Below are positions 6,333 to 8,069 of a stretch of DNA of 64,000 bases, piece after piece. The stretch lies in the NCBI RefSeq assembly GCF_017348835.2, contig NZ_CP071375.1, one strand, 5' to 3'. How positions within the stretch are numbered: the first letter of the stretch is position 1; each line of letters opens with the position of its first letter. The translations under genes were made by a program, and so were the position numbers. Source of the DNA: Escherichia coli. Its GTDB lineage: Bacteria; Pseudomonadota; Gammaproteobacteria; Enterobacterales; Enterobacteriaceae. A model generated the notes under the pieces. It was not told the origin of the DNA. It saw only the letters and a list, made by a program, of their open reading frames with translations, and ran no database searches.

Positions 6333-8069
6333 ATGCCGCGTGGCCTGGAATTACTGATAGCTCAAACCATTTTGCAAGGCTTCGACGCTCAGTATGGTCG
6401 ATTCCTCGAAGTGACTTCCGGGGCGCAGCAGCGTTTCGAACAGGCCGACTGGCATGCTGTCCAGCAGGCGATGAAAAACCGTATCCATCTTTACGATCAT
6501 CACGTTGGTCTGGTCGTGGAGCAACTGCGCTGCATTACCAACGGCCAAAGCACGGACGCGGAATTTTTACTGCGCGTCAAAGAGCATTACACCCGGCTGT
6601 TGCCGGATTACCCGCGCTTCGAGATTGCGGAGAGCTTTTTTAACTCCGTGTACTGTCGGTTATTTGACCACCGCTCGCTTACTCCCGAGCGGCTTTTTAT
6701 CTTTAGCTCCCAGCCAGAGCGCCGTTTTCGTACCATTCCCCGCCCGCTGGCGAAAGACTTTCACCCCGATCACGGCTGGGAATCTCTGCTGATGCGCGTT
6801 ATCAGCGACCTGCCGTTGCGTCTGCACTGGCAGAATAAAAGCCGTGACATTCATTACATCATTCGCCATCTGACGGAAACGCTAGGGACAGACAACCTCT
6901 CCAAAAGTCATTTACAGGTGGCGAACGAACTGTTTTACCGCAATAAAGCCGCCTGGCTGGTAGGCAAACTGATCACGCCTTCCGGCACATTGCCATTTTT
7001 GCTGCCGATCCACCAGACGGACGACGGCGAGTTATTTATTGATACCTGCCTGACGACGACCGCCGAAGCGAGCATTGTTTTTGGCTTTGCGCGTTCTTAT
7101 TTTATGGTTTATGCACCGCTGCCCGCAGCGCTGGTCGAGTGGCTACGGGAAATTCTGCCAGGTAAAACCACTGCTGAATTGTATATGGCTATCGGCTGCC
7201 AGAAGCACGCCAAAACCGAAAGCTACCGCGAATATCTCGTTTATCTCCAGGGCTGTAATGAGCAGTTCATTGAAGCGCCGGGTATTCGTGGCATGGTGAT
7301 GTTGGTGTTCACGCTGCCGGGCTTTGACCGTGTATTTAAAGTCATCAAAGACAAGTTCGCGCCGCAGAAAGAGATGTCTGCCGCTCACGTTCGTGCCTGC
7401 TATCAACTGGTGAAAGAGCACGATCGCGTGGGCCGAATGGCGGACACCCAGGAGTTTGAAAACTTTGTGCTGGAGAAGCGGCATATTTCCCCGGCATTAA
7501 TGGAATTACTGCTCCAGGAAGCAGCGGAAAAAATCACCGATCTTGGCGAACAAATTGTGATTCGCCATCTTTATATTGAGCGGCGGATGGTGCCGCTCAA
7601 TATCTGGCTGGAACAAGTGGAAGGTCAGCAGCTGCGCGACGCCATTGAAGAGTACGGCAATGCCATTCGCCAGCTTGCCGCTGCTAACATTTTCCCGGGC
7701 GACATGCTGTTTAAAAACTTCGGTGTCACCCGTCACGGGCGTGTGGTTTTTTATGATTACGATGAAATTTGCTACATGACGGAAGTGAATTTCCGCGACA
7801 TCCCGCCGCCGCGCTACCCGGAAGACGAACTTGCCAGCGAACCGTGGTACAGCGTCTCGCCGGGCGATGTTTTCCCGGAAGAGTTTCGCCATTGGCTATG
7901 CGCCGACCCTCGAATTGGGCCACTCTTTGAAGAGATGCACGCCGACCTGTTCCGCACTGATTACTGGCGCGCACTACAAAACCGCATACGTGAAGGGCAT
8001 GTGGAAGATGTTTATGCGTATCGGCGCAGGCAAAGATTTAGCGTACGGTATGGGGAGATGCTTTTTTGA
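6333..8069 (+). CDS. aceK: Isocitrate dehydrogenase kinase/phosphatase
   Basis: 578-aa ORF matching AceK ([24 protein letters not shown]...). Confidence 0.95.

Follow-up and report, generated by a model that had tools for sequence, protein, structure and literature searches.

The DNA analyzed here is a stretch of 64,000 nucleotides (nt) from Escherichia coli (RefSeq assembly GCF_017348835.2, contig NZ_CP071375.1), referred to below as the window, and the element under study is the point at which two of its convergent genes, aceK and arpA, share their 3′ ends. aceK, the final gene of the glyoxylate-bypass operon aceBAK, encodes an isocitrate dehydrogenase kinase/phosphatase of 578 amino acids (aa) that scores 943 bits against the NCBIfam equivalog NF002804 (cut-off 488) and comprises the Pfam domains AceK_kinase and AceK_regulatory. 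The 728-aa gene on the opposite strand is named arpA in K-12 and espL4 by the NCBI Prokaryotic Genome Annotation Pipeline (PGAP), and its product carries an N-terminal ShET2/EspL-family Toxin_15 domain (320 bits, cut-off 25) followed by ankyrin repeats (Ank_2, 32.5 bits, cut-off 27.3), which is the domain order of the ShET2/EspL family; a role as type III effector is predicted. The coding sequence (CDS) of aceK ends in cgg tat ggg gag atg ctt ttt TGA, with the stop at 8067–8069, while that of arpA, read on the minus strand, ends in aaa aaa gca tct ccc cat acc gta cgc TAA, with the stop at 8040–8038. The same 32-nt overlap follows from the annotation of K-12 MG1655 (aceK at 4218596..4220332, arpA at 4220301..4222487) and is likewise annotated in strain PE164 (NZ_CP114128.1, reverse strand), which differs from the window by 1 mismatch in 64 kb. 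The ratio of nonsynonymous to synonymous substitution rates (dN/dS) relative to K-12 is 0.16 for arpA and 0.04 for aceK, both on small counts, and arpA is a real gene under purifying selection. Both partners are thus genuine protein-coding genes on opposite strands that share 3′ nucleotides and have stops reproducible across genomes, as befits a convergent overlapping pair.

The overlap is real, reproducible and already present in the reference annotation (b4016/b4017 in K-12). A preliminary description of this DNA had identified the two genes, their coordinates and the 32-bp overlap, all of which the open reading frames (ORFs), domain matches and RefSeq annotation bear out. It had also named a sequencing frameshift or a misplaced stop in one of the genes as the finding that would dissolve the overlap, and to an artefact of this kind we give next to no credence. 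A T6 homopolymer does lie inside the overlap and length variants of it occur in public data, but of the 3,982 complete E. coli genomes in which the 91-nt junction at 8010–8100 is present, 3,779 carry it with 100% identity, which excludes such an error, and the K-12 reference has the same sequence. Moreover, the solved AceK structures use the 578-aa protein, and the ArpA cluster ending in SPHTVR counts 11,592 member sequences.

How the overlap came about is indicated by a survey in which a 1.1-kb query across the junction was compared with 5,425 complete E. coli genomes, which fell into three classes. The first gives a full match and has intact arpA; in the second the match ends at window position 8472, arpA having an in-frame 612-nt ankyrin deletion with the 32-nt overlap kept; and in the third, of about 1,340 genomes, arpA is absent and the BLAST match ends at 8044–8047, within the overlap itself. 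The two genomes of the third class that were inspected have no arpA, an AceK of 574 aa ending in FSVRFV*, and the stop of convergent iclR 16 nt downstream. The aceK loci of 80 other Enterobacterales species, E. albertii included, were then fetched and scanned, and an arpA-like gene was found at none of them. E. albertii, too, has the FSVRFV* end of AceK and no arpA, with a 15-nt gap to the iclR stop, and in Citrobacter AceK ends in FSVRFA* or FCVRFT* at the same length of 574 aa as in arpA-less E. coli.

In nucleotide alignments, homology of arpA-positive to arpA-less and outgroup sequences runs through tttagcgtNcggtNtg up to window position 8052, is not found from 8053 onward into the intervening segment, and resumes at gaaaaag+tca, from about 10534. 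The fraction of guanine plus cytosine (GC) is 0.369 in that segment versus 0.531 in aceK and 0.541 in iclR, falling right at the overlap and recovering just before iclR. The segment therefore combines a deviating base composition, a presence/absence polymorphism between conserved flanks and absence from the same site in outgroups, the hallmarks of a genomic islet. On the most parsimonious reading of the alignment the islet replaces an ancestral stretch of about 14 nt (tataaatcagaggc) that included the old aceK stop, and AceK accordingly ends in YGEMLF in arpA-positive and in FV in arpA-negative E. coli. The low GC, the break in homology and the absence from outgroups together identify the overlap as an insertion junction: it is very probably the scar left at the left edge of a low-GC foreign insertion that carried arpA into the last codons of aceK. 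The identity of the 91-nt junction across nearly all genomes that contain it fits a single event. The features of the locus are collected in Table 1.

Table 1. Features at and around the aceK/arpA junction (window coordinates)
Feature	Position	Strand or setting	Basis or remark
aceK CDS (isocitrate dehydrogenase kinase/phosphatase, 578 aa)	6333..8069	+	ORF list, NCBIfam, Pfam, RefSeq
arpA / espL4 CDS (728 aa)	8038..10224	-	ORF list, Pfam, RefSeq annotation
Convergent CDS overlap aceK/arpA	8038..8069	both strands	32 nt, from ORF coordinates
Putative ancestral aceK part of overlap (15 nt)	8038..8052	minus strand gives last four codons and stop of arpA, H T V R *	homologous to tttagcgtNcggtNtg tails of arpA-less E. 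coli, E. albertii and Citrobacter
Putative island-derived part of overlap (17 nt)	8053..8069	gives new aceK tail (G)EMLF and stop	homology ends, GC drops
T6/A6 homopolymer in overlap	8062..8067		one-base slips shift both stops at once
Low-GC arpA islet, ~2.48 kb, 36.9% GC	8053..10533	between aceK and iclR	GC, absence in arpA-less genomes, alignment breakpoints
8-bp GC-rich hairpin (gggcagaG/UUctgccc, minus strand)	10508..10529	right islet end, 11 nt beyond iclR stop	no U-tract
iclR CDS, putative ancestral convergent neighbour of aceK	10541..11365	-	annotation
AceK.f primer site	7659..7678	+	2 mismatches in this strain
ArpA1.r primer site, Clermont quadruplex polymerase chain reaction (PCR)	8039..8058	-	exact match to TCTCCCCATACCGTACGCTA

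The sequence of events would then have been as follows. In the ancestral Escherichia state aceK would have ended in R-F-V-stop, with the convergent iclR stop 15–16 nt further on. One ancient insertion, with its left breakpoint at 8052/8053, would have replaced about 14 nt by the AT-rich arpA segment of about 2.48 kb and so removed the aceK stop. From there aceK continues for 17 nt in foreign DNA before the first in-frame stop, which leaves it with the tail (G)EMLF*, and arpA continues for 15 nt in old aceK DNA before its own first in-frame stop, which leaves it with the tail HTVR*. The two tails lie in parts of their proteins that tolerate change, so that the junction could be kept and inherited nearly unchanged by the arpA-positive lineages.

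As to such tolerance, the C-terminus of AceK beyond the conserved RRxQRFxxR[FY] has a different length and sequence in nearly all genera examined, and the crystallised construct (PDB 4p69) covers residues 4–571 only. The intact forms of ArpA all end in ...SPHTVR. T5 alleles of the homopolymer, found in the complete genome CP164786.1 and in two independent read-set assemblies, encode an AceK of 579 aa (..MLFE*) and an ArpA with a 30-residue replacement tail ending in AVL*, with an overlap of 99 nt; an A7-type tail was seen in one error-prone fragment. The ankyrin deletion of the second junction class (window 8473–9084, residues 381–584) yields an arpA allele of 524 aa in which ankyrin repeats are lost and the aceK overlap is retained, represented by a cluster of 4,354 member sequences and named by PGAP only as "ShET2/EspL2 family". 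Damage to arpA is frequent, and includes insertions of the insertion sequence IS1 and disruption in B strains besides this deletion. The native C-terminus of ArpA was sought among homologues: a word-indexed search returned only E. coli ArpA variants, and an exhaustive search returned distant homologues of 24–37% identity that align only to about residue 590–690. Apparent homologues of 74–77% identity turned out to be error-ridden ArpA fragments.

The length of the overlap was compared with chance by simulating run-on from every entry point into the islet (plus strand) and into aceK antisense and recording how far reading goes on before an in-frame stop is met. In the median case it continues for 39 nt in the islet and for 66 nt in aceK antisense, and the two run-ons summed have a median of 123 nt (10th–90th percentile, 42–309 nt). 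An overlap of 32 nt, as seen here, ranks near the 6th percentile, in the short tail of this distribution, so selection for overlap need not be invoked. Nine convergent pairs are annotated in the window and aceK/arpA is the only one that overlaps; the tightest of the others is rluF (+, 24320–25192) and yjbD (-, 25193–25465), with a 0-nt spacer.

From the overlapping ends the preliminary description had deduced antisense transcript overlap and "shared or absent terminators". The former is supported and has in fact been published: ExcludonFinder places aceK-arpA among 165 convergent excludons, the transcript boundaries of the two genes overlapping in at least 50% of 58 MG1655 RNA sequencing (RNA-seq) sets (PMC12288877). 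The latter holds in the sense of "absent". A pattern scan of both strands gave no intrinsic terminator-like hairpin closer than about 170 nt to the junction, RNA folds at the junction are no more stable than those of shuffled sequences (z = -0.7, -1.0 and +1.4, both strands), and the sole stem over the T6 run is a weak 5-bp A/U one. The part of the published K-12 table of 3′ termini that was available has plus-strand entries at the aceA end, at AceK-int and then at metH, and none at the aceK/arpA junction, which is a weak negative. A bidirectional intrinsic terminator at the junction was considered and rejected, neither the scan nor the folds containing a GC-rich hairpin with A-tract and U-tract. 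Known RNA families were sought by an Rfam E-value scan of 5800–11600, which gave none at the junction. The only matches in that interval are to REP/naRNA4 in the aceA-aceK spacer, where repetitive extragenic palindromic (REP)-type elements at 6176–6253 and 6274–6311 match naRNA4 (RF02564) on the plus strand with 79.9 bits, above the gathering score; these elements fit the known attenuation of aceK versus aceA expression.

Expression data are available for BL21(DE3), in whose transcriptomes aceK transcript levels are very low, much below those of aceA, with premature termination inside aceK, while disrupted arpA is "not expressed at all" and aceBAK varied with conditions (PMC5435950). We infer that those few aceBAK transcripts that extend to the aceK 3′ end would run into arpA antisense, there being no intrinsic terminator, and that this read-through is probably stopped diffusely, for example by Rho acting on untranslated AT-rich RNA. 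Transcripts of arpA would likewise enter aceK antisense, and the resulting transcript overlap would probably be incidental and of little regulatory weight. Two items that seemed to touch the junction were set aside. A genomic SELEX (systematic evolution of ligands by exponential enrichment) peak of RpoS is listed at "4220334", seemingly on the aceK stop, and is irrelevant: the glpF entry suggests that older K-12 coordinates were used, and with an offset between reference versions that we take to be about 1,977 the peak falls in the 5′ part of arpA. The association of rho and iclR mutations in thermal-stress evolution lines (PMC5815632) has no bearing on the junction.

Several observations weigh against an insertion scar with incidental transcript overlap. 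The polarity of the insertion is decided by a parsimony argument in which E. albertii and Citrobacter serve as outgroups, the retrieved loci being without E. fergusonii and the cryptic Escherichia clades. The islet consists of a single gene, with no mobility gene, and a search of its ends turned up neither direct or inverted repeats at the flanks nor a target-site duplication or terminal repeats. The arpA-positive AceK tail RYGE.. is similar to tails of the type RYG../RFGE[VL]K in some other genera, which could be chance or could mean that the breakpoint is a few bases off. Beyond the aceK stop the RNA has no marked excess of C or deficit of G, which bears on the role that we assign to Rho, and because aceK-arpA is listed as an excludon it may have some regulatory effect. 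The tail resemblance, which extends to RYG.. and RFGE[VL]K.. tails in Klebsiella, Cedecea and Buttiauxella, and the missing insertion signatures would also agree with the opposite polarity, that is, with arpA being ancestral at this site and the short arpA-less junction (FSVRFV*, 16-nt gap) being a deletion arisen in B2/F-type E. coli. This is very improbable. The short junction of E. albertii and the 574-aa AceK of Citrobacter would demand repeated deletion or deletion in a deep ancestor, arpA is present at no other Enterobacterales locus scanned, its low GC marks it as foreign, and its closest homologues outside E. coli are at most 37% identical.

A different proposal concerns function, and takes the overlap to be a selected excludon in which mutual repression of the glyoxylate-bypass operon and arpA is brought about by convergent transcription and by antisense pairing of the shared 3′ ends. 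The pair does belong to the MG1655 "excludome", no terminator separates the two genes, arpA-positive genomes differ very little in the junction sequence, and arpA is under purifying selection. However, overlapping CDSs mean that full-length mRNAs must overlap, so that the excludon listing says nothing on function, and the conservation of the junction is explained by recent common descent. The overlap, moreover, appears to go back to an insertion junction and falls short of the length expected from chance run-on; some 25% of E. coli genomes do without arpA; where present the gene is often damaged in the ways listed above; and T5 alleles triple the length of the overlap. The BL21 data, with scarce and prematurely terminated aceK transcripts and a silent disrupted arpA, point the same way. 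Selection for mutual repression is unlikely on this evidence, and the functional interference between aceBAK and arpA for which the preliminary description saw a potential looks unlikely to matter. We therefore retain the insertion scar as the explanation of the overlap.

What surrounds aceK in relatives puts the junction in a broader setting; neither this setting nor the origin of the overlap had been noticed in the preliminary description. In 77 of the 80 Enterobacterales loci, iclR is found downstream of aceK in convergent orientation. The two CDSs overlap in 16 of these 77; the overlap measures 4 nt in 13 loci (Cedecea, Buttiauxella, Shimwellia, Mangrovibacter and others) and 47 nt in the remaining 3, and in 19 further loci the gap is at most 60 nt. 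Judging from these loci, an aceK 3′ end pressed against a convergent gene is the norm in the family, the arpA insertion apparently having merely swapped the partner. That aceK and iclR are kept tail to tail in other species offers a small lead on antisense coupling between an operon and its repressor, presumably broken by the arpA insertion in most E. coli lineages. Thus, ancestral aceBAK read-through antisense to iclR could have fed back positively on de-repression, and the arpA insertion in non-B2/F lineages would have uncoupled it and left arpA as an accidental antisense partner. We regard this scenario as doubtful; if it were true, the ancestral aceBAK-iclR contact would be a more interesting architecture than the aceK/arpA overlap. 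The hairpin at the right end of the islet is not significantly stable versus shuffles (z about -1.4) and does not match the terminator pattern, and it might serve 3′-end formation of iclR mRNA in arpA-positive strains.

The junction also has a practical side, in that the reverse primer ArpA1.r of the Clermont quadruplex PCR (sequence in PMC4322292, Table 1, and in PMC7464145) has its site wholly inside the overlap and straddling the breakpoint. Together with AceK.f it delimits an amplicon from 7659 to 8058, whose 400 bp match the "arpA" product size in PMC4322292. For phylotyping it is a practical point that ArpA1.r sits on the breakpoint, beside the slippage-prone T6 run.

Elsewhere in the window a few loci stand out. 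Between yjbD and lysC, at 25994–28880, lie genes for a slipin-family protein, a DNA polymerase beta superfamily protein (nucleotidyltransferase) and a zeta-toxin-family protein, a three-gene cluster that we take to be missing from the K-12 map at this point and that resembles an accessory islet of toxin or defence type. Besides arpA/espL4, the 64 kb contain a second type III effector-like gene, an intact member of the SopA family (526 aa) at 47766–49346, between ubiC and malM. A sorbose-type phosphotransferase system operon with sorE occupies 18259–23972, between rluF and pepE, and genes for a GntR-family regulator, an RraA-family protein and a major facilitator superfamily transporter occupy 1–2965, upstream of aceB; both gene sets are presumably accessory relative to K-12.

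The overlap, the transcript overlap and the arpA polymorphism were all already known, and the origin, an insertion scar in our reading, is mundane. As it stands the overlap matters little for biology: it is annotated, its transcript overlap is published, and the arpA polymorphism is a routine marker. What is added here is an explanation and, with the breakpoint inside the overlap, the point that the overlap alone is no argument for regulation. Compared with K-12 MG1655, where the same genes (b4016/b4017) overlap by the same 32 nt and the junction reads identically, the window, about 98% identical across this region, shows no substantive difference. Compared with other Enterobacterales, the partner of aceK has changed, from iclR, the repressor of the operon itself, to arpA, with iclR now 2.47 kb away in arpA-positive E. 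coli. In the Clermont quadruplex PCR the presence or absence of arpA is the fourth marker and represents the same polymorphism as the islet; the Clermont assay literature that was examined uses the polymorphism as a marker and does not discuss the overlap or its origin.

Overlapping gene pairs at large provide a further comparison. In an E. coli reference genome 75 convergent overlapping pairs have been counted and attributed to stop-codon movement (PMC4161906). The aceK/arpA pair belongs to the roughly 75 of this kind in E. coli and is like these in being tail to tail and in having lost an original stop and read on to the next, but differs in that its stop would have been displaced by an insertion of foreign DNA, moving both ends at once, and not by a point mutation in one gene. 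With the convergent excludons of PMC12288877, among which it is explicitly listed, aceK-arpA shares the lack of a terminator between the genes. Classical excludons are distinguished by reciprocal expression, RNase III processing and a functional rationale, whereas aceK-arpA is an excludon at the level of transcript overlap only, and, unlike in the classical cases, that overlap is forced by the overlap of the CDSs, which we trace to an insertion.

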